This document shows, piece by piece, positions 10,007 to 54,186 of a stretch of DNA of 64,000 bases. The DNA lies in contig JAGWBT010000002.1 of the NCBI GenBank assembly GCA_021295755.1, positions 7,256-71,255 on the forward strand, read 5' to 3'. Below the pieces are notes generated by a model, which saw only the letters and a list, made by a program, of their open reading frames with translations, did no database searches and was not told the origin of the DNA. The DNA comes from Candidatus Poribacteria bacterium (GTDB taxonomy: Bacteria; Poribacteria; WGA-4E; PCPOR2b). The first letter of the stretch is position 1. The number at the start of each line of letters is the position of its first letter. A program made the translations under genes and the position numbers.

Positions 10007-11866
10007 ATGGCTGATAGCAACAACACCGAAGAAATCCAAGAATTTGAGTATAAAGCAGAGATGAAACAACTTCTGCATCTCATTGTTCATTCGCTTTATA
10101 CTCATCCCGAGGTTGCCATCCGCGAATTAATTTCTAACGCTTCCGATGCGTTGCATAAAATCCGCTTCAGACAGTTGACGGATAAGAATATCCTAAATCC
10201 TGAAGTGCCTTTAAGGATTGACATCGCGGTTGATTCCGATGCACAAACATTCTCGATTACGGATACAGGCGTCGGCATGACTAGGGACGATTTGACCGAA
10301 AGAATCGGTACCGTTGCGAGTTCGGGAACGCTAGAATTTCTGGAGCAAATGAAGGAGGGAGACACACCCTTCGACGCCAACCTGATCGGTCAGTTCGGTA
10401 TCGGTTTTTATTCGGTGTTTATGCTTACGGACGAAATTACAATTGAAACGCGCCACGCTGATACCGACTCAAAGGGGTTCCGATGGCAGTCAACAGGTGA
10501 GGGCAAATTCACCATCAAGGAGATTGAACGTCCGCAGAGAGGCACCCAAATCTCCTTTAAGTTGAAAGACGAATCCAAGGAATTTAGCCAGTCGTATCGT
10601 GTTGAGCAGGTCATCCAGAAATACTCTAATTTTGTCGATTTTCCTGTTTCAGTCAATGGGAAGCAGGTGAACACTGTCAGTGCCTTGTGGCATAAGAATA
10701 GGAATGAAGTGACGGAGGAGGAGCGGAATGAGTTCTATAAATTCATATCAAACGACCTCAATCCGCCGCTCGGTCACCTACACCTTTCTCTCGAAGGTCG
10801 CGTGAATTTCAAAGCGTTGATGTTTATACCGGAAACGCAACCGCTCAGATTTCTCAGGGAGGAAGACCTGAGTTCGCTGCACCTGTATTCGAGCAAGGTC
10901 TTTATTCAGGACGATTGCAAAGAACTCCTGCCTGAATACCTTCGATTTATATCAGGGGTGGTGGATACCGAAGATCTGCCCTTGAATGTATCCCGCGAGG
11001 TGACACAATCGAGTCCTATCATGGCACGTATCCGAGAAACCTTAACGGGCAGGATACTCTCTCTGCTGGAAGATTGGGCGAAAGATGACGCAGAGAAGTA
11101 TGAGAAATTCTTCAGGAATTTCGGCTTGCTCTTCAAAACAGGACTGAGTTCAGATTTCGTCAACAAAGATCGACTGCTTCAGCTCTTGCGATTTGAGTCG
11201 ACCAAAACCGAAAGTGGCAAGTTTACCTCGCTGAAGGATTATGTCGCTGGGATGTCGGAGGATCAGGAGGAGATCTATTACTTGTCAGGTGACAGCAGAG
11301 ATGTGGTAGAACGGAATCCCAATTTGGAATATTTCAAGAAACAAGGGATTGAGGTGTTGTTCTTCATCGATCCCGTTGATCTGTTCAATATTCCCCATCT
11401 GCTTGAATATGACGAGAAACCGCTGAAAAGCATCGAAAAGGCGGATATAGATCTCAAAGCAGACGAAGAAAGCCAAGATGAAACCTTAACCGAGGATACC
11501 AACCTGATTTCTGTTTTCAAGGAGATTCTCGGCGATAAGGTGGAGGATGTGGTGGCTTCCAAAAGATTGGTTGATTCAGCAGCAACCTTGGTTGTCGGGG
11601 CAGAGGGTATGGATGCCCACATGGAGCGGATGATGAAAATGATGAATCAGGATTTCACTGGATCCAAGCGCATCTTGGAACTCAACTTTTCCCATCCGTT
11701 GATAAAGAATCTCGCACAACTCAACCAGAACCAGGGCGATGAAACCCTTATCAAGAACTGTATTTTACAGCTTTACGAGGGCGCGTTGCTAGTTGACGGA
11801 AATACCGTGGACCCACCCACGTTTGTCGCTCGGATGACGGAGATTATGGAACGAGCAACAAATTGA
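10007..11866 (+). CDS. htpG: molecular chaperone HtpG (Hsp90)
   Basis: 619 aa with the HATPase N-domain motifs LYTHPEVAIRELISNASDA and GQFGIGFYS. Length is typical of bacterial HtpG. Confidence 0.92.
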   Translation: MADSNNTEEIQEFEYKAEMKQLLHLIVHSLYTHPEVAIRELISNASDALHKIRFRQLTDKNILNPEVPLRIDIAVDSDAQTFSITDTGVGMTRDDLTERIGTVASSGTLEFLEQMKEGDTPFDANLIGQFGIGFYSVFMLTDEITIETRHADTDSKGFRWQSTGEGKFTIKEIERPQRGTQISFKLKDESKEFSQSYRVEQVIQKYSNFVDFPVSVNGKQVNTVSALWHKNRNEVTEEERNEFYKFISNDLNPPLGHLHLSLEGRVNFKALMFIPETQPLRFLREEDLSSLHLYSSKVFIQDDCKELLPEYLRFISGVVDTEDLPLNVSREVTQSSPIMARIRETLTGRILSLLEDWAKDDAEKYEKFFRNFGLLFKTGLSSDFVNKDRLLQLLRFESTKTESGKFTSLKDYVAGMSEDQEEIYYLSGDSRDVVERNPNLEYFKKQGIEVLFFIDPVDLFNIPHLLEYDEKPLKSIEKADIDLKADEESQDETLTEDTNLISVFKEILGDKVEDVVASKRLVDSAATLVVGAEGMDAHMERMMKMMNQDFTGSKRILELNFSHPLIKNLAQLNQNQGDETLIKNCILQLYEGALLVDGNTVDPPTFVARMTEIMERATN

Positions 11867-24794: not shown

Positions 24795-25028
24795 GTGAAG
24801 GAGGGATATGAAATGTTGACACAGCAACAGCAGTGGTGTCCTCGCTGCAAACGCTATGTTGAGACGGAACAGAAGCAGAATAAATTGGGTAGGCGCGGCA
24901 ATCTAGTGCAACTTGTCACAACCTGCCAAAAGTGTCGAATAACACTGACTAGCAAAACAGTTAGTGCTGCAACTCTTGAACAGACGCAAATAGAATCTGC
25001 TGCTAGCCAGTCGACCTCTGAAGAATAA
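24795..25028 (+). CDS. small zinc-ribbon protein (hypothetical)
   Basis: 77 aa with CPRC...CQKC (2x CxxC) spacing. No other homology is recognisable. Confidence 0.35.
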   Translation: MKEGYEMLTQQQQWCPRCKRYVETEQKQNKLGRRGNLVQLVTTCQKCRITLTSKTVSAATLEQTQIESAASQSTSEE

Positions 25029-25147
25029 TTAGCAACTAATTTGCAATGCAAGTCACACTTTTTGGGTCTCCATTCGTTTAAGATAGTAATAGACTTTACT
25101 TGGATTTTTTATTTTTATCCCTAAATTCCTTACAAAGGAGAAAAACG

Positions 25148-26032
25148 ATGTTAAGTTTTGTTTGGAAACACAGACAGTCTATCGTGCTTGTCACTCTGCT
25201 ATTGGTTGTTTGTGCAAGTCCGATGGCACTGGCAAAGGAGAAGATTCAGTGGGTGGAATCAGTCGAGAAAGGATTTGCAGAAGCCAAAAAAACGGGCAAA
25301 CCAATCATGATGGATTTCTACACCGAATGGTGAGGCTTTTGTAAGCGGCTGGATGCCGAAACATTTACGGATGAAAAAGTTGTTGCTCTATCGAAAAACT
25401 TTGTCAACCTCAAGGTCAATCCTGAAGATACAGACCATCCCGAAAACGAGGAGGTCCGTATCAAATACGGTGTCAGTGGATATCCAACGGTTGCATTTGT
25501 CAATTCCGAGGGAGAATTAATTGGTCTCAATCCTGGCTATAGCCCTCCAGAGGAATTTTTCGGAGTGATGGAAGGCATCTTCAAAGAGGAGGAGGCATTT
25601 AAGGCGTTGAAGGTGGCGGTTCAGAAGAATCCGGGTGACGTAAAGGCTAACGCTGGACTCGCGCTAATTTACATCAAGCGCGGCGAATTTGAGCTGGGAA
25701 AACCGCTATTTGATAAGGTTACAAAACAGGATCCAAGAAATGCAACGGGGCTTTTACCGGAGTTGTATGTGAATTTTGGGCTCCATTATGGGAATAGCGC
25801 TGCTGGCGACAATGCGCAGGACTATTTCCAGAAGGCGGAAGCGTTTTTCCAGAAGGTCATTGACACCTATCCCGACAGCAAGTTTTACGAGGATGCACAA
25901 TATTACTTGGGGATTACCTACGCAATTCAAGAAAAATCCGAATTGGCAATTGCAACGCTTGAGAAGTTGACTGATGCTAAAAATGAAGAAATTCGTGAAC
26001 AGACGGCAATACTTCTAAAGCGTCTCAAATAG
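25148..26032 (+). CDS. secreted thioredoxin-fold thiol:disulfide oxidoreductase with in-frame TGA (putative selenocysteine) in the W-U-G-F-C active site, fused to a C-terminal TPR-like domain
   Basis: The ATG at 25148 follows AAAGGAG and a signal peptide follows. The TGA at 25331-25333 sits exactly where the first Cys of the Trx WCxxC motif would be (PIMMDFYTEW-TGA-GFCKRL). The same frame stays open for 232 more codons with no stop. It contains the Trx cis-Pro loop (GVSGYPTVAFV) and a TPR-like tail (...ALIYIKRGEFELGKPLF...EDAQYYLGITYA...). The standard-code ORFs 25100-25333 and 25565-26032 are in the same frame. Confidence 0.6.
25334..25370 (+). promoter_or_regulatory. candidate bacterial SECIS hairpin immediately 3' of the in-frame UGA
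   Basis: G25341-U25345 (GUAAG) pairs with A25364-C25368 (AUUAC read 3'->5'; G:C, U:A, A:U, A:U, G:U). The upper stem C25346-C25349 (CGGC) pairs with G25355-G25358 (GCCG). The apical loop UGGAU (25350-25354) lies 17-21 nt downstream of the UGA. It was folded by eye only. Confidence 0.4.
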
Positions 26033-26084
26033 AATGTCTCAAAAGTTCGATGGAGTAGTCTGTTGCCAACTTGAATATATTCAC

Positions 26085-26127
26085 GAAACAAGCCCATTAC
26101 CAATGAATTGGTGTGGGCTTGTTTTGT
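26085..26127 (+). terminator. rho-independent terminator
   Basis: AACAAGCCCA...TGGGCTTGTT stem followed by TTTGTT, about 55 nt after the stop of the 25148-26032 gene. Confidence 0.6.
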
Positions 26128-26184: not shown

Positions 26185-26214
26185 TTGTCAACCCAACCTG
26201 CTTCGTGCTATAAT
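26185..26214 (+). promoter_or_regulatory. sigma70-type promoter upstream of argH
   Basis: TTGTCA (26185-26190), an 18-nt spacer, then TATAAT (26209-26214), about 75 nt upstream of the argH ATG. Confidence 0.5.
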
Positions 26215-32361: not shown

Positions 32362-32764
32362 GTTGCTATCCTTCCTGTTTCGATGCAATTAATGAATTTT
32401 TGAACTAATGAACTCTTAAACTCAATGATTTCATGGGGCGGAAGTTACGGCATACGAAGTATGCCTAATACCAGCGACTTGGGTTAACTTTAATGGATTT
32501 TTAGGGAAAACGCAAGGCTACTGAAGCAATTATATCGAACAATAGAATTTTGCTTGTATAAAAATTCGGTTTGTGCTACAATATGACAAATCTTTGGGTG
32601 CGCTTTAGCGTATCATGCTGTATTGCAGGTTAGATTCCTGCTCTAGTAACTTGCACCAGCAAACCTAACCTCAACTGTGATGTTTGTGTATTGATACACG
32701 ATTGGTTGATGGTTTAGTAGAACCCATGATTCTACAACTTGAATGTTTCAGTAGGAAATATATC

Positions 32765-33049
32765 ATGCAGACATCTCACTGGATAGCCCTGTCTATAGGG
32801 CTATTTGCAGTCTTAGGTGGATTCACTGGTTTGGGGGTTTTGCTATTCAGTCTGCACAAATCAACAACGAGATATTTTGATGCCAAGTTTGAACAAGTTG
32901 ACATAAGGTTTGAACAAGTTGACACAAGGTTTGAACATATCGAAGTTAGATTCAACAATATCGAAAAGAGGCTATCAGAATTGTCCGATAGTATTGCAGC
33001 TCTGAATAAAGCCCACATCGATCACTTGGATCATCATATTACCAACTGA
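32765..33049 (+). CDS. hypothetical membrane-anchored repeat protein (FEQVD-R octapeptide repeats)
   Basis: An N-terminal TM helix (IALSIGLFAVLGGFTGLGVLLF) is followed by FEQVDIRFEQVDTRFEHIEVRFNNIEKR, encoded by 24-bp tandem DNA repeats. No known motif. It may lie inside degenerate intron sequence. Confidence 0.3.
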   Translation: MQTSHWIALSIGLFAVLGGFTGLGVLLFSLHKSTTRYFDAKFEQVDIRFEQVDTRFEHIEVRFNNIEKRLSELSDSIAALNKAHIDHLDHHITN

Positions 33050-33255
33050 AAAGTCATCGTGGGAAGCAGGGGGAAACGGTGAATACAACGAGAGAATGTA
33101 GACTCTTTCATGCACATCAGGTTAGAGTGGCATGACTAAATTGAAAGATGAACTGATGTCGGAAGCCTCATAAATACCGAACAGGTGAATCCACAATAAT
33201 AAGTTTGTAACCAATAAGGTATTGAACCTAGGTTGATGTTTCCAATATGCAGTTA

Positions 33256-33636
33256 TCAGCATTGAGGGTTTTGGCTATAGACCGAATCTGTCGAGTGAAC
33301 ACTGGCAAGTATACTGCTGGAGTTGATGGAGTTTCTACTCCGTGAACAAAAGCAGAACGCCTTGACTTTATGACAGAATTGTTCTATAATCTTGATATAA
33401 CCAAAGAATCCGACCCCATAAGGCGGGTATACATACCCAAATCCGAGGGCAAACAGTGTCCTTTGGGTATTCCTACAATTCGACATTTTCGATTCTTCAA
33501 TATCGAATATCTGAACACAACCAATGGGTTGATTGCCGCCAATCATCATTTATAAATCGGCGAACCGTGTGCGGTGAAAGTCGCACGCACGGTTCTGATA
33601 GGGAGAAAGATAAAACGATTTATCCTACCTATCCAT
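33256..33636 (+). mobile_element. group II intron remnant: degenerate intron-encoded RT fragment followed by canonical domain V and a domain VI-like hairpin
   Basis: The ORF fragment carries RT motif 0 (TGKYTAGVDGVSTP, then an in-frame TGA) and motif 1 (RRVYIPKSEGKQCPLGIPTIR), then diverges and stops. At 33562-33595, GAACCGTGTGCGGTGAAAGTCGCACGCACGGTTC folds as a 34-nt domain V: a 10-bp lower stem, a 2-nt AC bulge on the 3' strand, a 4-bp upper stem and a GAAA tetraloop. A domain VI-like hairpin with bulged A lies at 33597-33633. The 5' boundary was not identified. Confidence 0.55.
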
Positions 33637-33703
33637 ACAAATTGTCATACCATAAACCATATTCATTCACTTTAGAATGAATTATCTCTTCGAGGAGGTA
33701 ACA

Positions 33704-37606: not shown

Positions 37607-39835
37607 ATGAGTTTCGATCTGCGTCAATTCCCTGAAATTAGAAGATACCTGTTTCTTTTAAGTTTTATATTCTTATTTCCGATCTGCATAAGCTCTGCCT
37701 CTGAACCGATAGAATATCGAGCCGAGGCGTATCGAACTTTTCAGAGCATTGAGATTGACGGGGATTTCAATGAAACCGATTGGCAGCATGCAAAACTGAT
37801 AAATCAGTTTGTCCAAACCGAACCTGATGAAGGCGTGCCGATAACTGAATCGACAGCGGTCCGCATCCTTTACGATGAGAAAAACATCTACTTCGGTTTT
37901 ACCTGTTCAAGTTCATGGCGTGATAGCATTGTTGCCAACGAAATGCGTCGAGATGCAGAAAATTTGCGTGAGAACGATAATGTTTTCATCCTTTTGGATA
38001 CCTACAACGATAAACGTAATGGGGTTTTCTTCCGCATCAATCCATTAGGTGCGATGCAGGATATAGCGTTGACAAACAGCGGAGATAGCCAGAACAGGAG
38101 TTGGGATGCCGTATGGGACTGTCGCTCCAAGATCAATGATGACCATTGGACAACGGAGATTGCTATTCCCTTTAGTCAACTCCGTTTCAACAGAAGCGAG
38201 TCGATGGTCTGGGGTATAAATTTTGGACGAACCATCCGGCAAAAGAATGAAGAGGCAACGTGGGTTCCCGTATCGAGACAGTATGGCAGTCGATCGAAAT
38301 ATCGAACCGCTAACCTCGGCAGCCTAGTTGGTTTGGCAGGCATAACTCCGTCTAGGCGGCTTGAAGTTCTGCCTTATGTTTTACCGGGGGTGAGCCGAAT
38401 CGAGGGCGAGGAGGGCACCGATGGGGTATTCGACATTGGATTAGATCTCAAGTACGGTTTAACCTCGAACCTTACCGCAGATCTGACTCTTAACACCGAC
38501 TTTGCGCAAGTTGAAGCGGATCAGGAACAGGTCAACTTGACGCGCTTCAGTTTGTATTTCCCGGAGAAGCGTCCCTTCTTCTTGGAAGGCGCCGGATTAT
38601 TTGATTTCGGTATTCCTCGCCCCAGTTTCTTTAGTCCTCCTCCGTTAATTCTCTTTTACAGTCGTCGCATCGGTCTTGAGGAAGGTTACGCCATTCCGAT
38701 TCTCGGTGGGGGCAAGATTACAGGCAAAATGGGACCATACGGCATTGGTCTGTTGAATGTGTTGACAGATGAGTTTCACACGGATCCATCGGTTACGGAT
38801 GAAGACGATATTGTTGATCTGTCTAGGACAAACTACTCCGTGCTGCGTGTGACGCGAGATCTCTTCAGTGGTTCTAGCATCGGGGCGATTGCGATTAATA
38901 AACAGGATACGGATACATACAACCGCGCGGGAGGATTGGACTTCGCATATCGTCCAAACGACAGTATTGATGTGCGTGGACTGTGGGCACGGACTTATGA
39001 GGAGGAGGTTTCTGGCAAGAATGATGCGATGTACTTTGGCGGTACTTGGCGAAACAGTCTACTTCGATTTAATGGAACATATACGTTCATCGGTGAGGAT
39101 TTCAACCCTGAGGTCGGATTCGTCCGTCGTCAGGGCAGCCGACGATTCCGTGGACAGATGCGTTTTACCCCTTGGCCCAGAAAATTCGGTGTTCGCCGCA
39201 TTTTCATGGGACCGGAGGTTGACTATATCCTCAACCAAGATGATGAACTGGAAACGCGGGAGTTTTCACTCACCAATTGGTTTCAACTTGAGCAGGGCAG
39301 TTGGATCAACGTTGAGATTCGACGAACCTCTGAATTTCTCGACGAGGATTTTGAAATCCGAGAGGGCGTTATCATACCAGTTGACGATTACAATTTAACT
39401 ACCCTCAGAACGATGATCGATACGGATGAAGGAAGGAAAATTTCGGGTCGATTCGGGGCAAATTACGGTACCTTTTTTAACGGTACAAATCGTGGGTTTG
39501 ATATCCAAGCGAACTTTAAACCGAGCGGCCGCCTCGCCTTTGAAACGCAATATCAATTTAACCGGGTGAATCTCCCGAGTGAAGATCCTTTCAATGTGAA
39601 TATTTTCGGGAGCCGTATTGTTTATTCTTTCACCACAACTCTTTTTGCGAAGTTGTTCGCCCAATGGAACAGCGATGATGAACTGATTTCCGCCAATTTC
39701 CTGCTGAACTACATCTACCGTCCCGGCAGCGATTTCTACCTCGTTTTCAATCGGATTTATGATAGTGGTAGCGCGAAAACGACACCTGGGGAATCTACGG
39801 TTGTTGCAAAGATGACTTATTGGTGGAATCCGTAA
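37607..39835 (+). CDS. DUF5916-like outer-membrane protein with N-terminal CBM9-like domain (paralog 1 of 4)
   Basis: 742 aa with a signal peptide. N-terminal EYRAEAYRTFQSIEIDGDFNETDWQHA...DTYNDKRNG resembles carbohydrate-binding family 9/DOMON-like domains. Conserved core LTADLTLNTDFAQVEADQEQVNLTRFSLYFPEKRPFFLEGAG, and a C-terminal TYWWNP. About 60-70% aa identity to the ORFs at 39892, 42270 and 48514. The family name is from memory. Confidence 0.75.
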   Translation: MSFDLRQFPEIRRYLFLLSFIFLFPICISSASEPIEYRAEAYRTFQSIEIDGDFNETDWQHAKLINQFVQTEPDEGVPITESTAVRILYDEKNIYFGFTCSSSWRDSIVANEMRRDAENLRENDNVFILLDTYNDKRNGVFFRINPLGAMQDIALTNSGDSQNRSWDAVWDCRSKINDDHWTTEIAIPFSQLRFNRSESMVWGINFGRTIRQKNEEATWVPVSRQYGSRSKYRTANLGSLVGLAGITPSRRLEVLPYVLPGVSRIEGEEGTDGVFDIGLDLKYGLTSNLTADLTLNTDFAQVEADQEQVNLTRFSLYFPEKRPFFLEGAGLFDFGIPRPSFFSPPPLILFYSRRIGLEEGYAIPILGGGKITGKMGPYGIGLLNVLTDEFHTDPSVTDEDDIVDLSRTNYSVLRVTRDLFSGSSIGAIAINKQDTDTYNRAGGLDFAYRPNDSIDVRGLWARTYEEEVSGKNDAMYFGGTWRNSLLRFNGTYTFIGEDFNPEVGFVRRQGSRRFRGQMRFTPWPRKFGVRRIFMGPEVDYILNQDDELETREFSLTNWFQLEQGSWINVEIRRTSEFLDEDFEIREGVIIPVDDYNLTTLRTMIDTDEGRKISGRFGANYGTFFNGTNRGFDIQANFKPSGRLAFETQYQFNRVNLPSEDPFNVNIFGSRIVYSFTTTLFAKLFAQWNSDDELISANFLLNYIYRPGSDFYLVFNRIYDSGSAKTTPGESTVVAKMTYWWNP

Positions 39836-39891
39836 CGCATGAAACATAGCACATTTTTAAATATTTGATTTTTTCGCAAAGGAAACTGTCT

Positions 39892-42129
39892 ATGATTTAT
39901 CATTTTAACAGAATACCTACAACGTCAAGGTGTGGAAAATCTTTTCTTATTTTGTCTATGTGCTGTCTGTTGTTTCCGTTCATTGTGAATGCAGATGCGG
40001 ACTCTATGGAATACCGCGCTGAAGCATATCGAACATATCAGAGCATTGAGATTGACGGAGAATTCAACGAGGAAGACTGGCAGAATGCAAAAACTATCAC
40101 TCGACTCATCCAATATGAACCTGTCGAGGGAGAGTTAATTTCGCAACCTACAGAGATACGCATTCTTTATGACGCGAAGGAAATCTACTTTGGATTTACC
40201 TGTTTTGACGACGATATTTCCAAAATGGTTGCCAATGAGATGCGCCGCGATGGCAGTGGTCAGGACGGATTGCGTGAAAATGACCATGTCTCTATCCTTC
40301 TGGATACCTATAACGATCGGCGCAATGGATTTTACTTCCGTGTCAATCCGCTAGGAGCAAAGGAAGACATCGCTTTAATAAACAGCGGAGAGAGTCGAAA
40401 TCAGGCTTGGGATGCGATCTGGGAATGTCGGACCAAAATCAATGATAACCATTGGACAGCAGAGATAGGTATTCCTTTCAGCCAACTTCGTTTCAGTAAG
40501 AGTGACGATATGACATGGGGGCTGAATTTGGGACGAAGCCTTATGCGCGACCAAGAGGACGCAACATGGGCACCGCTTTCCAAAGCGCATGGATTCTTTG
40601 CGAGATACCGCACTGATGTTATTGGTGATTTGGTCGGGTTGCAAGGGATTACTCCCCCTCGGAATCTGGAACTGCTGCCCTATGTCTTGCCGGGGGTGAA
40701 TCGTATTGAAGCCGAAAAGACAACTGATGGAGTATTCGACATCGGCTTGGACCTTAAGTACGGTGTGACCTCCAATCTGACAGCGGACCTGACGTTTAAC
40801 ACCGATTTTGCGCAAGTCGAGGCGGATCAGGAGCAGGTCAACCTCACCCGTTTCAGCCTGTTTTTCCCGGAGAAGCGTCCCTTCTTCCTAGAAGGTGCGG
40901 GGCTGTTTGATTTCGGCATTCCCCGCACTAGCTTCCGCCGTCCGCCGCCGCTGCTTCTGTTTTATAGCCGCCGCATCGGTCTTGAGGAGGGACGTGCCAT
41001 CCCGATTATCGGTGGGGGCAAGATTACAGGCAAAGCAGGGCCTTACGGCATCGGTATGCTGAATGTGTTCACGAATAAATTGCTTGATGAGACCGATCCT
41101 GAGGAGATTATTGATGTGCAGCGCACCAATTATTCCGTGTTGAGGTTGACGCGGGATGTTTTCAGTACCTCTCGGATTGGATTAATTGGCATCAACAAGC
41201 AAGATACTGACACATACAACCGGGCAAGCGGACTTGACTTCACATATCGTCCAACCGATAGCCTTGATGTACGTGGCCTCTGGGCTCGCACATTTGAAGC
41301 GGATGTCTCCGGTCAGAACAACGCTTTGTACCTCGGCAGCACTTGGCGAAACAGGGATCTTCGCTTGGAGGGTTCATATATGGACATCGGTGAGAACTTT
41401 AACCCCGAGGTCGGATTTATCCGGCGAGAGGGAATCCGCCGAATCAATAGTCAAATCCGTTATAGTCCCCGGCTCGGCAAATTTGGGATTCGCCAAATCT
41501 ATACAGGACCGGAGTTTGATTTTATCCTCAATCAAGACAACCAACTGGAAACTCAAGAAATCACATTGACCAACTATTTTCGGTTTGAAAGCGGTGCCTA
41601 CATTGGGTTTCTACCTAAACGAACCACTGAACACCTTGATGAGGATTTTGAAATCCGAGATGGGATTACTATCCCTCCGGGCGAATACAGCTTCACTGAA
41701 ATGATGATTAGAGGTTCCACCGATGATACGAAAGCCCTCGCAGGGCAGTATAGTGTGAATTTTGGTAACTTCTACAATGGAAGCAGGTGGGGATTTACCC
41801 TCGACGCGAGCTTCAAACCGAACGGGCGTTTGAATGTTGAACCTATATTTCAGTTTAACCGTGTTACGCTTCCCCAAGAGGCATTTAATGCAAGCATTTT
41901 TGGTGCCCGTGTCGGCTACTCCTTTTCGACAACGCTTTTTGCAAAGATATTCGCCCAATGGAGCAGCGACGATGACATAATCGCTACCAATGTTCTGCTG
42001 AATTACATCTACCGTCCTGGTAGTGATTTTTATCTCGTTTTCAACCAGATTTATAATACTGGCGGTACAAAAACAGCACTTGACGAATCCACAGTTGTTG
42101 CAAAAATGACTTACTGGTGGAACCCGTAA
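39892..42129 (+). CDS. DUF5916-like outer-membrane protein with N-terminal CBM9-like domain (paralog 2)
   Basis: The ATG at 39892 follows AAAGGAAA. Domain order and motifs match paralog 1 (EYRAEAYRTYQSIEIDGEFNEEDWQNA...TYWWNP). Confidence 0.75.
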   Translation: MIYHFNRIPTTSRCGKSFLILSMCCLLFPFIVNADADSMEYRAEAYRTYQSIEIDGEFNEEDWQNAKTITRLIQYEPVEGELISQPTEIRILYDAKEIYFGFTCFDDDISKMVANEMRRDGSGQDGLRENDHVSILLDTYNDRRNGFYFRVNPLGAKEDIALINSGESRNQAWDAIWECRTKINDNHWTAEIGIPFSQLRFSKSDDMTWGLNLGRSLMRDQEDATWAPLSKAHGFFARYRTDVIGDLVGLQGITPPRNLELLPYVLPGVNRIEAEKTTDGVFDIGLDLKYGVTSNLTADLTFNTDFAQVEADQEQVNLTRFSLFFPEKRPFFLEGAGLFDFGIPRTSFRRPPPLLLFYSRRIGLEEGRAIPIIGGGKITGKAGPYGIGMLNVFTNKLLDETDPEEIIDVQRTNYSVLRLTRDVFSTSRIGLIGINKQDTDTYNRASGLDFTYRPTDSLDVRGLWARTFEADVSGQNNALYLGSTWRNRDLRLEGSYMDIGENFNPEVGFIRREGIRRINSQIRYSPRLGKFGIRQIYTGPEFDFILNQDNQLETQEITLTNYFRFESGAYIGFLPKRTTEHLDEDFEIRDGITIPPGEYSFTEMMIRGSTDDTKALAGQYSVNFGNFYNGSRWGFTLDASFKPNGRLNVEPIFQFNRVTLPQEAFNASIFGARVGYSFSTTLFAKIFAQWSSDDDIIATNVLLNYIYRPGSDFYLVFNQIYNTGGTKTALDESTVVAKMTYWWNP

Positions 42130-42269
42130 ACTTGAAACGTAAAATGTGAAACGTATGATCAGTATACTGCATTCCCCCGATTCAATCGGGGAGACGACTG
42201 ATATACTCGCATTGCCACAGATCCTTACCTTAGAATCAATTCCGGAGCCATTTTGAAAGGAGACCGTTT

Positions 42270-44519
42270 GTGATTTATCACCTCAATTTTTGGTATCAGT
42301 TGTCAAGTGGTAGTATTCTGCGACATGGAAAATGTTTTTTTCTGTTAGCTATCTGCTATTTGGTATTTCCATTCGCTGTGGGTGCTGACCCTGGTCCCGT
42401 AGAGTACAAGATTGAAGCATACCGAACGTTTCAGAGCATTGAAGTTGATGGTGATTTCAATGAATCTGATTGGCAGCACGCGAGTCCGATTGATCGGTTT
42501 TTCCAAATTGAGCCCGATGAAGGCGAGTCGATAAGCGAACCGATGGAAGTCCGCATCCTGTACGATGACAAGAATATCTACTTCGGTTTTACCTGTTTTG
42601 AATCACAGATGTCAAAACTGGTTGCCAACGACATGCGTCATGACGCACAAGATCTACATGAAAATGACAATGTCTTTCTGATATTAGACACTTATAACGA
42701 TCAGCGCAACGGGTTTTCCTTCCGCATCAATCCGCTGGGGGCATACCAAGACAGAGCTGTAACGAATGGTGGAGACAGCTTGAATCGGAGTTGGGATGCG
42801 GTTGTCGCATGTCAGGCGAAGATCAATGGGGACCACTGGACAGCCGAACTCGGCATCCCGTTCAGCCAACTCCGTTTTGATAAAAGTGACAGGATGACTT
42901 GGGGGATGAATGTAGGACGGGGAGTTCGTAAGAACAATGAGGAAGCGATATGGGTGCCGGTGCCGAGACAGTATGGAGGGATGGCGAAATACCGCCTCGG
43001 CAACCTCGGCAGCCTTACTGGTTTAGAAGGGATTGCCCCATCTCGTCGCCTGGAACTGCTGCCTTATGTCTTGCCGGGGATGAGCCGTACCGAAGAAAAT
43101 GAGGACACCGATGGAGTATTTGATATCGGCTTGGACCTCAAGTACGGTATCAACTCTAATCTTACTGCGGATTTGACCTTTAACACCGACTTTGCCCAGG
43201 TTGAAGCTGATGAAGAACAGGTCAACCTCACCCGTTTTAGCCTATTCTTTCCTGAGAAGCGTCCCTTTTTCTTAGAAGGGGCGGGGTTATTTGATTTTGG
43301 TATTGGTCGCAGTAGTTTCCGCCGTCCGCCGCCGCTGCTTCTGTTTTATAGCCGCCGCATCGGTCTTGAGGAGGGACGCGCCATCCCGATTATTACAGGG
43401 GGTAAGATCACCGGCAAAATGGGACCTTACGGCGTCGGTATGCTGAATGTGTTGACAAATGAATTTCACGATGATACAGATCCGGAGGAAATTGTTGATG
43501 TGTCACGCACCAATTACTCCGTGTTGAGGTTGACGCGAGACCTGTTCAGCGGCTCACGTGTCGGATTAATCGGGATCAATAAGCAAGATGGAGATGCCTA
43601 CAATCGTGCTGGCGGATTCGATTTTTCATACCGTCCGGCAGACAATTTCGATGTGCGCGGACTGTGGGCGTATACTTCCGATTCGGATGAGGAAGATGGG
43701 AGCGATAATGCGTGGTATGTCGGCAGCACTTGGCGGAATGACTTACTTCGAGTAGGTGGTTCATACACGGACATCGGTGAGGACTTCAACCCTGAAGTTG
43801 GATACATCCGGCGGGAGGGCATGCGTCAAATCCGGAGTGACCTGCGTTTTACCCCTTGGCCCAGAAAGTTTGGGATTCGCCGCATCTGGACGGGTCCGGA
43901 ATTTGATCTTGTCCTCAATCGGGACGGTGACTTAGAGACCCGCTCCATCCGCTACAGCAACTGGTTTGAACTGGAAAGAGGTGGTCGCTTACAATTTGAG
44001 GTGCGGCAGACTGCTGAACACCTTGAGGAAGATTTTGAAATCCGAGATGATGTCATCATACCCATTGATGAGTATAGTTTTACATCAGCTAGGGCAGGGA
44101 TTCAGACCGATGAAAGTAAAATGCTTGCTGCGGAATTTGATGTGGATTTTGGTGAGTTCTACAATGGTAATAGGCGCGGCTTTGACATCGGGGCGACCTT
44201 CAAGCCGAGCGGACGTTTCGCCCTTGAATCCCAATATCAATTTAACCGGGTAACCCTCCCTGGGGAAGACCCCTTCAATGTAAATGTGTTTGGAGGTCGC
44301 TTCGCCTATTCCTTCTCGACCCAACTCTTTGCGAAACTGTTCGCCCAGTGGAACAGCGACGATAATGTGGTTTCCACCAACTTTCTGCTCAACTATATCT
44401 ATCGCCCCGGCAGTGACTTCTACCTTGTTTTTAACCAGATTTATGACGGCAACGGTGGAGGCGCCAATCTTGAGGAATCCACACTTGTTGGAAAGCTAAC
44501 GTATTGGTGGAATCCGTAA
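42270..44519 (+). CDS. DUF5916-like outer-membrane protein with N-terminal CBM9-like domain (paralog 3)
   Basis: GTG start after AAAGGAGA. EYKIEAYRTFQSIEVDGDFNESDWQHA...LTYWWNP. It shares a roughly 77-nt near-identical tract with paralog 2. Confidence 0.75.
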   Translation: MIYHLNFWYQLSSGSILRHGKCFFLLAICYLVFPFAVGADPGPVEYKIEAYRTFQSIEVDGDFNESDWQHASPIDRFFQIEPDEGESISEPMEVRILYDDKNIYFGFTCFESQMSKLVANDMRHDAQDLHENDNVFLILDTYNDQRNGFSFRINPLGAYQDRAVTNGGDSLNRSWDAVVACQAKINGDHWTAELGIPFSQLRFDKSDRMTWGMNVGRGVRKNNEEAIWVPVPRQYGGMAKYRLGNLGSLTGLEGIAPSRRLELLPYVLPGMSRTEENEDTDGVFDIGLDLKYGINSNLTADLTFNTDFAQVEADEEQVNLTRFSLFFPEKRPFFLEGAGLFDFGIGRSSFRRPPPLLLFYSRRIGLEEGRAIPIITGGKITGKMGPYGVGMLNVLTNEFHDDTDPEEIVDVSRTNYSVLRLTRDLFSGSRVGLIGINKQDGDAYNRAGGFDFSYRPADNFDVRGLWAYTSDSDEEDGSDNAWYVGSTWRNDLLRVGGSYTDIGEDFNPEVGYIRREGMRQIRSDLRFTPWPRKFGIRRIWTGPEFDLVLNRDGDLETRSIRYSNWFELERGGRLQFEVRQTAEHLEEDFEIRDDVIIPIDEYSFTSARAGIQTDESKMLAAEFDVDFGEFYNGNRRGFDIGATFKPSGRFALESQYQFNRVTLPGEDPFNVNVFGGRFAYSFSTQLFAKLFAQWNSDDNVVSTNFLLNYIYRPGSDFYLVFNQIYDGNGGGANLEESTLVGKLTYWWNP

Positions 44520-48465: not shown

Positions 48466-48513
48466 GTTGGTCCAGTGATTACTAATTTGAACAATCAAGA
48501 CGGGAGACAAGCA

Positions 48514-50787
48514 ATGACTGCTTATTTTAGTCTTTGGAATCAACTTTCACTATGTAGAATTGCTCAAAATCGAGGATTATTTCCCGCGATAAGATTGGGA
48601 TTCAAAGCAATCTGTTTGACCATCTTTTTGTCATTTCCGCTAATTGTGAGCGCAGATCCCTCCCCGATAGAGTACAAAGCAGAGGCGTACCGGACCTTTC
48701 AAGCCATTGAGATTGATGGCGATCTTACTGAACCTGATTGGCAGAACGCCAAGCGCATTGGTCAGTTTGTCCAGATGGAGCCGGACGAGGGCAAGCCGAT
48801 GACGGAGGCAACAGAGGTTCGCATTCTTTATGATGACAAAAACATCTATTTTGGTTTTACCTGTTTTGACTCGGATATTTCTAAAGTGGCCGCCAACGAG
48901 ATGCGCCGCGACGGCAACCTATGGGACAACGACAATGTCTTTGTACTTTTAGATACCTATAACGACCAGCGGAGCGGGTTTTTCTTCCGTGTCAATCCAT
49001 TGGGGGCAATGGAAGATGTTGCTATAATGGACAATGGAGACAGCCGGAACGAAAACTGGGATGCAGTCTGGGACTGTCGCACAAAAGCTAATGAGAAGTA
49101 CTGGACAGCAGAGATTGGTATTCCGTTCAGTCAACTCCGTTTTGATCGTGGTGATGTAATGACATGGGGCATGAATATGGGACGGAGCCTCATGCGCAAC
49201 CAAGAAGAAGGGATGTGGGCACCGGTTTCCAGAGCACATGGTTGGCGAGCCAGATATCGCACTGCTAATATTGGACGTTTGGTAGGCTTAAAAGGAATTA
49301 CGCCCTCCCGGAATCTCGAGTTGTTGCCTTACGTTTTGCCGGGGGTGAGTCGAATCGAGGTAGATGACGATACGAATGGAGAGCTTGAACTCGGCCTTGA
49401 TGCTAAGTATGGGATTACCTCAAATCTTATCGCGGATCTCACCTTCAACACTGATTTCGCGCAGGTCGAAGCCGATGAGGAACAGGTTAACTTAACCCGT
49501 TTCAGCCTGTTCTTCCCGGAGAAGCGTCCTTTCTTCTTAGAAGGTGCCGGGCTGTTTGATTTCGGTATCCCCCGCACTAGTTTCCGCCGCCCACCGCCAC
49601 TACTCCTCTTTTATAGCCGTCGCATCGGTCTTGCGGAGGGACATGCTGTCCCGATTATCACTGGTGGCAAGATTACCGGTAAAATGGGACCTTACGGCAT
49701 CGGTCTATTAAATGTTTTTACGGATAAATTTCACACTGATGCCTCTGTTACTGACCCTGATGAAATCGTTGATGAGCCGCGTATGAACTACTCGGTATTG
49801 CGCATGAGGCGAGATCTCTTCAGCGGTTCGACTGTTGGATTGATTGCGGTCAATAAACAAAACGCTGACACATACAACCGCGCAGGTGGATTTGACGTTG
49901 CGTATCGTCCTTCCGATAATATCAACTTTCGTGGGCTATGGGCTCGCACGTTTGAAGAGGGCGTGTTCGATCAAAGGGATGCTTTGTACTTTGGGGGTGA
50001 TTGGCGGAATGAGAATTTACGCCTAGAGGGTTCATACATAGATATCGGCGAGAACTTTCAACCCGGAGTTGGATATGTCCGGCGGCAAGATGTCCGCCGC
50101 TTCCGCGGTGAAATGCGATTTACACCTATGCTTGCTAAATTTGGGATTCGTCAAATTTGGGCGGGCCCTGAAGTTGACTTCATCCTCAATCGAGATAATG
50201 AGCTAGCAACCCGAGAGTTTACATATATGAACTGGTTTGAGCTAGAAGGCGGAGGTTGGTTTGGTTTTCAGGCGCAGCGAACCTTTGAACGCCTCGACGA
50301 GGATTTTGAAATTCGAGATGACATCACGATTCCGATCGACGAATATCATTTCAATTCCTTCCGGGTTTCGATTAATACCGATGACTCACAGATGGTGTCT
50401 CTCCAATTAGGAACGAATTTTGGGGGGTTCTTCGATGGGGAAAGGGTCGGTTTTGATATCGGACCGGATTTCAAGCCAAATGGGCACTTCAGTCTTGAGC
50501 CGCGTTTCCAATTTAATCGGGTTACCCTTCCTGCGGGTTCATTCAATGCGAGCATTTTCGGTACGCGTGTAAGCTATTCCTTTTCCACAAGATTCTTTAC
50601 TAAACTGTTTGCCCAATGGAACAGCGATAGCGGTGAGATTTCCGCTAACTTTCTGCTTAACTACATCTACCGCCCCGGCAGCGACTTCTACCTTGTTTTC
50701 AATCAAATCTATGACGGCAGCGGCGCAGGTGCCAAGTTGGAGGAATCCACATTTGTCGGAAAGATGACTTATTGGTGGAACCCGTAA
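48514..50787 (+). CDS. DUF5916-like outer-membrane protein with N-terminal CBM9-like domain (paralog 4)
   Basis: The ATG at 48514 follows GGGAGA. EYKAEAYRTFQAIEIDGDLTEPDWQNA...MTYWWNP. A signal peptide is present. Confidence 0.75.
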   Translation: MTAYFSLWNQLSLCRIAQNRGLFPAIRLGFKAICLTIFLSFPLIVSADPSPIEYKAEAYRTFQAIEIDGDLTEPDWQNAKRIGQFVQMEPDEGKPMTEATEVRILYDDKNIYFGFTCFDSDISKVAANEMRRDGNLWDNDNVFVLLDTYNDQRSGFFFRVNPLGAMEDVAIMDNGDSRNENWDAVWDCRTKANEKYWTAEIGIPFSQLRFDRGDVMTWGMNMGRSLMRNQEEGMWAPVSRAHGWRARYRTANIGRLVGLKGITPSRNLELLPYVLPGVSRIEVDDDTNGELELGLDAKYGITSNLIADLTFNTDFAQVEADEEQVNLTRFSLFFPEKRPFFLEGAGLFDFGIPRTSFRRPPPLLLFYSRRIGLAEGHAVPIITGGKITGKMGPYGIGLLNVFTDKFHTDASVTDPDEIVDEPRMNYSVLRMRRDLFSGSTVGLIAVNKQNADTYNRAGGFDVAYRPSDNINFRGLWARTFEEGVFDQRDALYFGGDWRNENLRLEGSYIDIGENFQPGVGYVRRQDVRRFRGEMRFTPMLAKFGIRQIWAGPEVDFILNRDNELATREFTYMNWFELEGGGWFGFQAQRTFERLDEDFEIRDDITIPIDEYHFNSFRVSINTDDSQMVSLQLGTNFGGFFDGERVGFDIGPDFKPNGHFSLEPRFQFNRVTLPAGSFNASIFGTRVSYSFSTRFFTKLFAQWNSDSGEISANFLLNYIYRPGSDFYLVFNQIYDGSGAGAKLEESTFVGKMTYWWNP

Positions 50788-50959
50788 CGTAAGATTTGGC
50801 CCTTGGTAGACTCTCACGCTCAAACCGACGCATCTCCTCTCGGATCTACAAATTCCTGATACCTCCTCGGCGTATTTTTACGGTTAACAGTTTATGTTGG
50901 CATAGATTGTGCTTGCCTTACAAACCGTATTTTTACGTTTGACGTTTCCGGGGGATACC

Positions 50960-53281
50960 ATGAAACGCTTGATTTCATCATTTTCAGTCTTTTTCGCCGT
51001 CCTTTTCTGTGTAAACAGCTATGCTGAGTTCTCTCACCAATTTCTGTTTGGACATACTGGACGGGCGCTTTCCGTTGCGTTTAGTCTTGATGGAAGGTGG
51101 CTCGCTTCTGGTGGTGCAAATGAAATTCTCATCTGGGAAATCGGTGTCAGTGAACCAATGTATACCCTGACTGGACATACAGGCAAAGTCGAAGACCTCG
51201 CTTTCCGCTCCAACGGCAATCTTGTATCTGCGTCCCTTGATGGAACGGTGCGATTGTGGAATATACAGGCGCAACAAGAGATTCGTGCGTTTGAGGGACA
51301 TGTTGGACAGGTCACGTCTGTGGATTTTAATTCCGATGGGAGCCGCATCGTTTCTGGATCACGAGATCGGACGCTCAAACTGTGGGAAGCGGACACTGGT
51401 GCACTTATAACAACTCTTGAAGGGCATACAGACGTTGTCTGGTCTGTTGCATTTAGTCCAGATGGCGGCATAATCGCCTCCGGATCAGAGGATGGCACTG
51501 TGCGTCTGTGGAATGCCTCTGATGGTTCACAACTTCATAGCTTGACTGGACATATGCAAGGGATTCTTTCTGTTGCATTCCATCCGGACGGTAATCTCAT
51601 CGCGTCGGGGGCTAGGGATGGAACTGTCCGACTGTGGAACATCAATACGGCGGCACCCGGTGACAGGATCGGGGAGACGGAACCGTTTGCGACCTATGAC
51701 CGCCAAGTGATGTCAGTTCGTTTTAATCCTAACGGACGCCTCCTCGCTGTGGGGCTACTAAATTCACCGGCTGACAACACCCTCAAACTGTGGGATGTTT
51801 CTACCCGCTCTGAACTCCAATCTTTCGACACGCAAATCATACACGATCTCTCGTTCAGTCCAACTAGTCCTCAACTAGCAGTCGTAGGGGCAGCCGAGGG
51901 AACGATCATTATCTGGAATTCAAGTCATTTAAGGCCGGTGCTCGTTGAACCACAAGGAGGCAAGTTTGTCAAACCTTCACAAATCAACTTGAAATGGGGA
52001 GCCGTTAAAGATGCAGTCTACTACGATATTGCAATTTCCAGCGATTCAAACTTTATTACTGCGAACACACGATTAATAACTGCTACTGTCAACGAGCTAT
52101 CCTTTGATGCTGAGAACAATATCTCCCACTATTGGTGGCGCGTTCGTACCGGCAGCTTCGGCAGAGTCAGTGATTGGTCTGAGGTCCGGGACTTCCAAGC
52201 CCTAGGTTGTGTGGTGAGGATAGTTCCCTCGGTTCGGCGGATCAATTTAGGAGAGGAGTTTGCGGTTGACGTTTTCGTCGAATCCGTCATCGACTTAAGA
52301 GGGTTTGAGTTCGATTTGCAATGGACCAATCCTGATGCGCTAACGTTTGTGACTGTCACCAAGTTCCGAACTATTTTTGGAGAATCTGGAATTGGACATC
52401 AGCCGACAGAGCCACCAGACCAGATAAATGGGATATACAAAGATGTCAGTGCTGCCATAACAGGCGCTAGCGGAATAACTGGTAGCGGCATCATGTTGGG
52501 CGCTTCATTTCGGGCAAAAGCCGTTGGATTGAGCAAAATTCAGTTGCGAAATCTTATTCTTGTCGACTCAAATGAGGAGCGAATCGATTGTGAAATTCAC
52601 GAGTTAAAAGTGATTGTCGAAGACCCCGTTCAACCGTGGGATGTCAACGTCGATGGGGTTGTGAACATCTTCGATCTTAGCATTGTCGTGCGATCCATAG
52701 GGCAGCCAATTCCGACAGACTTGGATATTTATCCAGATGTCAATGGTGACGGTGTTATCGATATCAACGATTCTGTACTAGTAAGTGCACATTTTGGTGA
52801 ATCCTATCAGACTGATGAAACCCGTGCTGCTCCGCAAGCCGCCGGTGAATCCCTGTACTTAATTCCACCATCGATACGCAAGCAGCTTGAATCAATTTAC
52901 CGCGAACTCTTGTTGATGCCTAACAATTCTCCAGAGTTTATCCGGGCTAGACAGGTTTTGCAATATCTCCTTTTCCCACCGGTCCCGGTGCATAATCAGT
53001 TGCTGCAAAACTATCCTAACCCATTCAATCCAGAAACGTGGATTCCTTTCCACCTTGCTTCAGCCGGTCAGGTCACGATTGGGATCTATGATACTACTGC
53101 GACGCTTATCCGTCAGCTCGACTTGGGATACCTGATGCCCGGACACTATCTGACTCGAGGCAAGGCAGCGTACTGGGATGGAAGGAATGTATATGGTGAG
53201 CCTGTCGCCAGCGGGATCTATTTCTACACACTTTCCACAGCGTCCTTCCATGCAACCCGGAAAATGATTATCGGCAAATAG
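50960..53281 (+). CDS. secreted WD40-repeat protein with dockerin-like repeats and T9SS-type C-terminal sorting domain
   Basis: Signal peptide. At least 7 WD40 repeats (…GHTGRALSVAFS…GTVRLWN…). Dockerin-like calcium-binding repeats (DVNVDGVVNIFD, DVNGDGVIDIND). The C-terminal tail LLQNYPNPFNPETWIPFHL…IGIYD…YWDGRN…ASGIYFY resembles the Por-secretion tail/FlgD-Ig family. Confidence 0.8.
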   Translation: MKRLISSFSVFFAVLFCVNSYAEFSHQFLFGHTGRALSVAFSLDGRWLASGGANEILIWEIGVSEPMYTLTGHTGKVEDLAFRSNGNLVSASLDGTVRLWNIQAQQEIRAFEGHVGQVTSVDFNSDGSRIVSGSRDRTLKLWEADTGALITTLEGHTDVVWSVAFSPDGGIIASGSEDGTVRLWNASDGSQLHSLTGHMQGILSVAFHPDGNLIASGARDGTVRLWNINTAAPGDRIGETEPFATYDRQVMSVRFNPNGRLLAVGLLNSPADNTLKLWDVSTRSELQSFDTQIIHDLSFSPTSPQLAVVGAAEGTIIIWNSSHLRPVLVEPQGGKFVKPSQINLKWGAVKDAVYYDIAISSDSNFITANTRLITATVNELSFDAENNISHYWWRVRTGSFGRVSDWSEVRDFQALGCVVRIVPSVRRINLGEEFAVDVFVESVIDLRGFEFDLQWTNPDALTFVTVTKFRTIFGESGIGHQPTEPPDQINGIYKDVSAAITGASGITGSGIMLGASFRAKAVGLSKIQLRNLILVDSNEERIDCEIHELKVIVEDPVQPWDVNVDGVVNIFDLSIVVRSIGQPIPTDLDIYPDVNGDGVIDINDSVLVSAHFGESYQTDETRAAPQAAGESLYLIPPSIRKQLESIYRELLLMPNNSPEFIRARQVLQYLLFPPVPVHNQLLQNYPNPFNPETWIPFHLASAGQVTIGIYDTTATLIRQLDLGYLMPGHYLTRGKAAYWDGRNVYGEPVASGIYFYTLSTASFHATRKMIIGK

Positions 53282-54149: not shown

Positions 54150-54186
54150 AAAAGTAATTAGCATTGTTAGTTTGGATATCTACACA

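Follow-up and report, generated by a model that had tools for sequence, protein, structure and literature searches.

A probable selenoprotein combining a thioredoxin fold with a tetratricopeptide repeat domain in Candidatus Poribacteria

Introduction

Because thioredoxin-fold proteins with selenocysteine (U) at the first position of a U-x-x-C active site are the commonest kind of bacterial selenoprotein, and because a DsbD-gamma-type family of them is already catalogued, the recoding of a UGA codon in a gene of this sort is in itself unsurprising. Poribacteria are a phylum of sponge symbionts on which almost no selenoprotein literature was found. In 64,000 nucleotides of a Candidatus Poribacteria genome (assembly GCA_021295755.1, contig JAGWBT010000002.1, positions 7,256 to 71,255; this whole stretch is called the window, and positions are given in its own numbering), a forward-strand gene for a thioredoxin-like protein is interrupted by an in-frame TGA at the very codon where such proteins carry their first catalytic cysteine. 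Is this UGA a signal to terminate, an error, or a codon that is read, and if so, as which amino acid? An original prediction, made from the letters of the window, took the gene for a secreted selenoprotein; the comparative analysis reported here supports that interpretation, and we put at roughly 85% the probability that the UGA at 25331-25333 is decoded as selenocysteine within one protein of 294 residues.

A single reading frame on both sides of the UGA

From the ATG at 25148 to the TAG that ends at 26032, the frame has a sole interruption, the TGA; the two standard-code open reading frames (ORFs) 25100-25333 and 25565-26032 share one common frame, and translation bears out the predicted continuity from the TGA to 26032. 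Across the TGA the translation runs KPIMMDFYTEW*GFCKRLDAETF and, further on, YGVSGYPTVAFV, which is the cis-Pro loop of the thioredoxin fold. The start is set at the ATG at 25148 rather than at the TTG at 25100 because the orthologues share the N-terminus that follows from it (MLxxVW/R[KR]..). Between 25334 and 25564, that is, over the 77 codons following the TGA, there is no in-frame ATG, GTG or TTG, so the rest of the thioredoxin domain is not translatable by itself.

If the UGA were a true stop, the product would be an exported peptide of 61 residues, and the downstream part would be either a separately reinitiated ORF or a decaying pseudogene. Gene callers do annotate 61-residue ORFs and truncated “TPR proteins” (for tetratricopeptide repeat, TPR) at such loci, and the folding energy of the hairpin described below is unremarkable, both in keeping with termination. 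A stop at this point would, however, cut the thioredoxin fold at its active site and leave the start-free stretch unread; in orthologues the first possible start after the TGA varies from codon +2 to codon +78. Selection was measured as the ratio of nonsynonymous to synonymous substitution (dN/dS, Nei-Gojobori method) between the orthologues and the window. It is 0.08-0.29 over the 33 codons upstream of the TGA, 0.14-0.23 over everything downstream, and 0.12-0.20 over the 77 start-free codons right after it, this last figure leaving out the loci L090 and L092, in which an indel makes the ungapped comparison invalid. Purifying selection across a stretch that holds no start, combined with downstream starts that vary among orthologues, means that the two halves are one translated unit; as expected of a selenoprotein gene, a conserved in-frame UGA has selected coding sequence on either side. 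Decay, for its part, would have added further stops and frameshifts, whereas the TGA is kept in about 15 distinct sequences. Termination at this codon is thus highly improbable.

Of the 44 long ORFs in the window, 10 end in TGA, and most of these have the next gene close behind; the standard code is therefore in use, and an alternative genetic code (4 or 25) is ruled out on the same count. Among the 32 TGA-joined frames listed in the window, only that of 25148-26032 is coding-like; the remaining ones overlap longer ORFs or translate into junk-like sequence and were rejected as further selenoprotein candidates.

Conservation of the TGA in Poribacteria

A protein search with the readthrough product found 69 relatives, of which nearly all the close ones are either truncated, starting just past the TGA column or further down, or full-length with a tryptophan in that column. 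The codon was read directly in the DNA of 19 loci (L001-L009 and L090-L099), to which the window adds a twentieth. TGA occupies the same column in 19 of the 20, which comprise about 15 distinct sequences; the identity of their products to that of the window is 44-90%. The layout is common to all loci, with 61-63 codons from the ATG to the TGA followed by 127-275 in-frame codons (the 127 belonging to a truncated contig), and the gene lies in every case 3′ of yidC-jag-mnmE and a small ORF, and 5′ of argH or rluB. No orthologue ends or is frameshifted at the TGA; the frame is intact on both sides. A metagenome scan with the post-UGA region returned three loci. The predicted thioredoxin-TPR selenoprotein is kept in every poribacterial lineage sampled, at a fixed position downstream of mnmE.

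A sequencing or assembly error at a true TGC or TGT would need a difference of one base only. Since the TGA is shared by independent assemblies (ENA, Logan and JGI) of different samples, obtained with several sequencing technologies, such an error is excluded for all practical purposes.

Another possibility is that a near-cognate tryptophan tRNA reads through the UGA, or that UGA has been reassigned, placing tryptophan at residue 62. The single exception to the conserved TGA, locus L006, does carry TGG (10116-10118 of that locus), and several database entries show a tryptophan. In the latter, however, the DNA has TGA, and the tryptophan comes from short contigs translated under another code. 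L006 is the most divergent member of the set, lies on a contig of 5x coverage with a split mnmE, and also differs in the preceding codon, TCG (serine) instead of TGG; its TGG could be a sequencing error or a recent loss of selenocysteine to tryptophan that leaves only the resolving cysteine. Considering further that TGA serves as a terminator in this genome and that the column is the catalytic cysteine in all distant homologues, tryptophan at this position is very hard to credit.

These distant homologues, which share the thioredoxin-TPR arrangement, have cysteine in the column within the motifs WCGWCK or WCTWCK (P0064, P0066, P0067 and P0069). A scan of the GTDB species genomes adds 368 confirmed relatives in Armatimonadota, Ignavibacteria, Omnitrophota, Planctomycetota, Zixibacteria and others; its search pattern demanded a cysteine codon, so that it covers cysteine forms only, with no poribacterial genome, and is used here as the cysteine control. 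The motif is C-x-x-C in 75 of the 80 GTDB loci inspected. The claim that the TGA takes the place of the first cysteine of a thioredoxin motif (here W-U-G-F-C-K), along with the expectation that homologues would have cysteine or selenocysteine in this column, is thereby confirmed, and the conserved UGA of Poribacteria and the cysteine of their relatives form, as far as alignment can tell, a classical selenocysteine/cysteine pair. No selenocysteine form from outside Poribacteria is found among the 69 relatives of the protein search.

A minimal SECIS-like hairpin under synonymous constraint

In bacteria, the published criteria for a selenocysteine insertion sequence (SECIS) element, or bSECIS, are an apical loop of 3-9 nt with a G in the first two loop positions, an upper stem of 4-16 bp, a distance of 16-37 nt from the UGA and a minimum free energy (MFE) of -7.5 kcal/mol or lower (PMC13188914 Fig. 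2). The MFE fold of the 65 nt from the UGA has a stem at nucleotides 8-41, counted from the U of the UGA, with the apical loop UGGAU. This hairpin falls within the published ranges by a narrow margin: its loop is of 5 nt with a G at position 2 followed by another G, its MFE is -9.7 kcal/mol, and its 4-bp CGGC/GCCG stem and 16-nt spacing are exactly at the lower limits. Of 15 orthologues with the TGA, 14 have a core-containing fold at -7.5 kcal/mol or below. Rfam has no match at the locus, although bacterial SECIS elements of this type may not be represented in it.

When the 60 nt from the TGA onward are aligned without gaps (A3), the block CGGCUGGAUGCC hardly varies. Within it, a stem of three base pairs, GGC/GCC, is invariant and closes a loop of UGGAU or UGGAC. 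This core is extended by a C16-G28 pair in nine sequences, and many have a further lower stem; in the other seven, G15-C29 and A14-U30 form across a C.A mismatch. Wherever codon +10 encodes threonine, as it does in seven sequences, it is ACU, which allows pairing of C29 and U30 with G15 and A14. Over 16 sequences the composite structure is 86% paired, a figure that drops to 24-44% once its 3′ partners are slid.

The choice of synonymous codons is constrained as well. Where two sequences agree in the amino acid, they also agree in the codon in a fraction of 0.55 of cases gene-wide. This fraction rises to 0.73-0.82 in windows of 8 codons whose start lies between -1 and +11 codons from the TGA, and is at most 0.70 in any other well-populated window, which makes the peak at the TGA the highest of the gene. 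The core is encoded by CGG-CTG-GAT-GCC, minor codons of this genome (CGG 19% of arginine, CTG 17% of leucine and GCC 18% of alanine codons) with a joint expectation of 0.004 per sequence, and is fixed across lineages whose synonymous sites are saturated. The window has a single copy of the core; 17 loci of the selenocysteine or tryptophan form carry it at this position, two others are one base off, and it is absent from all 80 cysteine-form loci; three of the cysteine forms have the identical peptide KRLDA, and all three use other codons for it. Taken alone the hairpin is weak evidence; its significance lies only in these comparative data.

A probably exported thioredoxin-fold protein with a TPR domain

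By inspection, the protein begins with a signal sequence, MLSFVWKHRQSIVLVTLLLVVCASPMALA, followed by a lysine; its n-h-c layout is also seen in the orthologues and in the cysteine homologue P0064, and the equivalent residues have a pLDDT below 50 in the structure model. The original prediction of a signal peptide is upheld in this respect, as is that of two domains, one thioredoxin-like and one TPR-like. With U replaced by C, residues 29-138 match the Pfam families Thioredoxin_2 (3e-16), Thioredoxin_7 (5e-16) and DsbH/DUF255 (3e-12), and residues 148-280 match TPR families; in the Protein Data Bank (PDB), the sequence matches are 2kuc (5.6e-15) and DsbD-gamma (about 1e-9). The AlphaFold model of the orthologue P0001, which is 90% identical to the window protein, has a pLDDT of 93 and a pTM of 0.82 and shows a thioredoxin fold followed by eight helices (pLDDT above 94). 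In this model, the selenocysteine position comes directly before the start of helix 1 (residues 51-60 of P0001) and the invariant cis-proline before strand 3. According to Foldseek, the closest structures to the thioredoxin domain are DsbH and DsbD-gamma (TM-score 0.70-0.79, root-mean-square deviation 2.5-2.8 Å, 21-26% identity), while the top match at full length is YbbN/CnoX of Escherichia coli, 3qou (E 7e-07, TM-score 0.30, 14% identity). No NCBIfam model has a cut-off that the protein passes.

Comparison with known systems

Two catalogues describe selenoproteins of a closely similar kind, namely the “Thiol:disulfide interchange protein” family, defined by PF13098 and a UxxC motif with WP_011366075.1 as reference (PMC13188914), and the “Trx-like 2”, cd02953 DsbD-gamma family of the GOS survey (PMC2398784 Table 2). 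Like the former, the window protein has a Thioredoxin_2/DsbD-gamma fold, a putative selenocysteine as the first residue of UxxC and abundant cysteine homologues; it scores 60 bits with PF13098 against a cut-off of 27, and its motif is U-G-F-C. Domain and motif place the gene in the catalogued class. Unlike that family, its product starts with a predicted signal peptide and ends in a TPR domain of about 150 residues, and neither the TPR-fused form nor Poribacteria are mentioned in the PMC13188914 review, BSepDB or deep-Sep; arguably, thioredoxin-TPR proteins make up a new architectural subfamily of a catalogued selenoprotein class.

In structure, DsbD-gamma and DsbH (PDB 1vrs, 2fwg, 1uc7 and 2ju5) are the best matches to the thioredoxin domain, and they have in common with it the WCxxCK context of the active site, the cis-Pro loop and a periplasmic location, which for the window protein is a predicted one. 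They use cysteine where the window protein would use selenocysteine, and DsbD-gamma receives its electrons from the membrane domain to which it is tethered, whereas the window protein is free-standing, soluble and joined to a TPR domain. With the NCBIfam model of DsbD (NF001419) it scores 61 bits against a cut-off of 330, and only the gamma-like domain matches, which places it outside DsbD proper.

Fusion of a DsbD-like or Thioredoxin_7 domain with another module is known from two other selenoprotein families, TsoB (NF045694) and the Trx7/PDZ (seleno)protein (NF041199). The C-terminal DsbD-like domain of TsoB is the best NCBIfam match of all (8e-23), limited to profile positions 428-568; at 80 bits against a cut-off of 805, the window protein does not belong to these rhodanese/DsbD fusions. 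It reaches 33 bits against a cut-off of 300 with the Trx7/PDZ model. It has neither a rhodanese nor a PDZ domain, and the Trx7/PDZ family has CxxU, not UxxC.

In terms of domain order, the nearest counterpart is the chaperedoxin CnoX/YbbN (PDB 3qou and 3qdn), which has the same succession of an N-terminal thioredoxin domain and C-terminal TPRs in a protein of nearly the same length. CnoX is cytoplasmic, and that of Escherichia coli has an SxxC motif. In comparison, the window protein carries a signal peptide and UxxC, belongs to a different thioredoxin subfamily and has another orientation between its domains; the TM-score and sequence identity of the full-length match are low, and no CnoX-specific family is among the Pfam or NCBIfam results.

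Selenocysteine machinery, and how the reading stands

The origin of the window is poribacterial: its MnmE is 91% identical to a Candidatus Poribacteria protein, all named matches among its top 120 are from Poribacteria, and P0014, a C-terminal fragment of the family studied here, is MYE90429.1 of Candidatus Poribacteria. The G+C content is 47.7%. This content, as well as the WD40 and BNR proteins of the window, fits such an origin. Domains of SelA, SelB or SelD are not found in the 40 other long ORFs of the window that were scanned, the three remaining long ORFs being yidC, jag and argH, identified through orthologues; no tRNA, and hence no tRNA-Sec, is present in the window or in ten orthologous flanks. 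This agrees with the original prediction, in which the machinery was said to be missing from the window. As none of it is seen here or in the flanks, its presence in this exact genome is deduced from other Poribacteria: SelA/SelB/SelD counts are 2/1/1 in Candidatus Poribacteria WGA-3G, 2/1/1 in bin70 and 4/1/2 in bin44, the G+C content of the last being 47.2% (Slaby et al. 2017 Table S4, PMC5649159). Poribacteria are also among the nine phyla with selenocysteine-type group 4 hydrogenases (PMC13582414).

The same hairpin and SelB could in principle serve a tRNA(ReC)-type allo-tRNA inserting cysteine, which would turn the active site into an ordinary CxxC. Such tRNAs read SECIS-associated UGA codons as cysteine and occur in about 13-17% of the genomes surveyed (PMC13582414), and nothing in the sequence tells insertion of cysteine from that of selenocysteine. 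No tRNA(ReC)-type gene is found in the window or its flanks, however, and SelA and SelD, which serve selenocysteine alone, are encoded in Poribacteria genomes; in addition, keeping a UGA and a constrained hairpin clade-wide would be costly when a change of one base gives UGC or UGU. Insertion of cysteine is thus very unlikely, and even when termination, tryptophan readthrough and sequencing error are added to it, the four alternatives together remain quite unlikely.

Several observations weigh against the selenocysteine reading or against parts of it. The hairpin originally predicted 3′ of the UGA is indeed present from nucleotide 8, conserved and within the bSECIS ranges; what does not hold up is its stability, since at -9.9 kcal/mol it is not above shuffled sequence (z = +0.93; 177 of 200 shuffles reach as low an energy). 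The C16-G28 pair is replaced by the C.A mismatch in 7 of 16 sequences, which leaves an uninterrupted upper stem of 3 bp, below the published minimum of 4 bp, and the fold of L097, at -5.0 kcal/mol, falls short of the bSECIS energy limit. There is no compensatory pair in any helix (0, with RNAalifold and two hand-specified helices); covariation is uninformative here because the core never varies. L006, with its TGG, keeps the hairpin core CGGCTGGATGCC, so the core can outlast the UGA at least temporarily. The genes selA, selB and selD and that for tRNA-Sec are absent from the window and from about 190 kb of orthologous flanks. Finally, the likeness to CnoX is one of domain order only and is not evidence of common descent.

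With selenocysteine as the preferred reading, we infer the following course of events. The stem-loop inside the coding sequence, made of the core GGC/UGGAU/GCC with its loop 16 nt after the UGA and of variable lower pairings, would recruit SelB with Sec-tRNA(Sec), upon which the ribosome would insert selenocysteine rather than terminate. Given its N-terminal Sec-pathway signal peptide, the product would then be exported to the periplasm. In the U-G-x-C active site, Sec62 would act as the attacking nucleophile and Cys65 as the resolving residue, while the TPR domain most likely holds a partner or client protein. The most likely activity is the reduction or isomerisation of disulfides, or the reduction of sulfenylated cysteines, in proteins of the cell envelope, with electrons that may come from a membrane reductase of the DsbD/CcdA type.

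Layout of the gene and of its surroundings

The coordinates of the gene and of its elements are collected in Table 1. The terminator hairpin (20 bp) was not picked up by a strict terminator scan, apparently because an unpaired base interrupts its stem.

Table 1. Elements of the predicted selenoprotein gene in window coordinates.
Feature	Position	Strand	Basis or remark
Shine-Dalgarno sequence AAGGAG	25135-25140	+	7 nt 5′ of ATG 25148; read from sequence
Complete selenoprotein coding sequence (predicted)	25148-26032	+	294 sense codons including one selenocysteine codon, then TAG 26030-26032
Predicted Sec-type signal peptide, residues 1-29	25148-25234	+	By inspection: n-region KHR, h-region IVLVTLLLVV, cleavage A-L-A/K
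Thioredoxin-fold domain, DsbD-gamma/DsbH/Thioredoxin_7 type	25235-25561	+	PF13098, PF13899, PF03190; 2kuc; Foldseek
Predicted selenocysteine codon, in-frame TGA, residue 62	25331-25333	+	First position of U-x-x-C; TGA in orthologues, cysteine in distant homologues
SECIS-like stem-loop within the coding sequence, window MFE structure	25338-25371	+	-9.7 to -9.9 kcal/mol; peak of synonymous conservation
TGT, resolving Cys65 of UxxC	25340-25342	+	Column C65 invariant in alignment A1
Hairpin core CGGC-UGGAU-GCCG	25346-25358	+	Apical loop 25350-25354, 16 nt after the UGA; nearly invariant nucleotides
cis-Pro codon, P113 in G-Y-P-T-V	25484-25486	+	Invariant in A1, A4 and A5; aligns with YPT of 2kuc
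C-terminal all-helical TPR domain, residues 148-294	25589-26029	+	Pfam TPR_19, TPR_2, TPR_6, others
Strong hairpin with U-rich tail, probable transcription terminator	26083-26127	+	-27.8 kcal/mol, z = -7.0, direct folding

On the 5′ side, an ORF of 77 residues at 24795-25028 (+) matches no Pfam family and contains two zinc-ribbon-like CxxC pairs (CPRC...CQKC). Its place after mnmE and before the selenoprotein gene is taken by an ORF of 65-81 residues in L001-L005, L093, L096 and L099, and it looks like a conserved small gene of unassigned function. On the 3′ side, argH is preceded by a near-consensus extended -10 promoter at 26185-26214 (+), of the form TTGTCA-18-TATAAT with an upstream TG (11 of 12 matches).

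Further away in the window, a gap of 1.29 kb without a long ORF at 32389-33676 contains, at 33560-33628 (+), an Rfam match to group II intron domain V/VI (59 bits, E 4e-09); the same gap, between GFO_IDH and OmpA, measures about 376 nt in L001, which suggests the insertion of a group II intron without an ORF, either whole or as a remnant. A truncated TnpB/Cas12f-like protein of 234 residues, with OrfB_IS605 and TNB domains, is encoded at 58684-59388 (+), and a full-length copy of 439 residues lies between two PhyH genes of the orthologous locus L003 (14993-16312, minus strand); elements of the IS605 family are evidently active in these genomes.

The window also encodes, at 37607-44519 and 48475-50787 (+), four paralogous DUF5916 proteins of about 750 residues, one of them with a CBM9 domain; an ABC transporter fusion and a DUF1854 protein lie among them. 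Two large repeat proteins, of WD40 (790 residues) and Reg_prop/Big_7 type (1215 residues), follow at 50909-53281 and 54172-57816 (+). Both are in line with the high counts of WD40 proteins (COG2319) in Poribacteria genomes (Slaby et al. Table S4, PMC5649159).

Significance

The practical value of the finding is the correction of an annotation error that runs through a whole clade. Public records mis-annotate the family (MYE90429.1, that is P0014, as well as P0001-P0005 and P0050), either as a truncated “tetratricopeptide repeat protein” beside an orphan ORF of 61 residues or as a full-length protein with a tryptophan in its active site. For the prediction of selenoproteins, a very small bSECIS that is backed by constraint on synonymous sites, and not by energy or covariation, is a useful benchmark.

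A bolder proposal, which we regard as possible though unlikely, is that Poribacteria keep a periplasmic, selenium-dependent counterpart of CnoX, whose TPR domain would hold unfolded or oxidised envelope proteins while its selenocysteine-cysteine pair reduces or protects their cysteines, and whose SECIS is minimal. If this were true, the protein would be the first case of a “holdase-reductase” among selenoproteins, and the first of a selenocysteine enzyme linked to the quality control of envelope proteins in a host-associated bacterium; its SECIS would be unusually minimal, with an upper stem of 3-4 bp at the shortest allowed spacing of 16 nt. Short of that proposal, an exported protein of CnoX-like architecture with a predicted selenocysteine suggests, by analogy, that selenium may have a role in maintaining the redox state of the cell envelope in these sponge symbionts.

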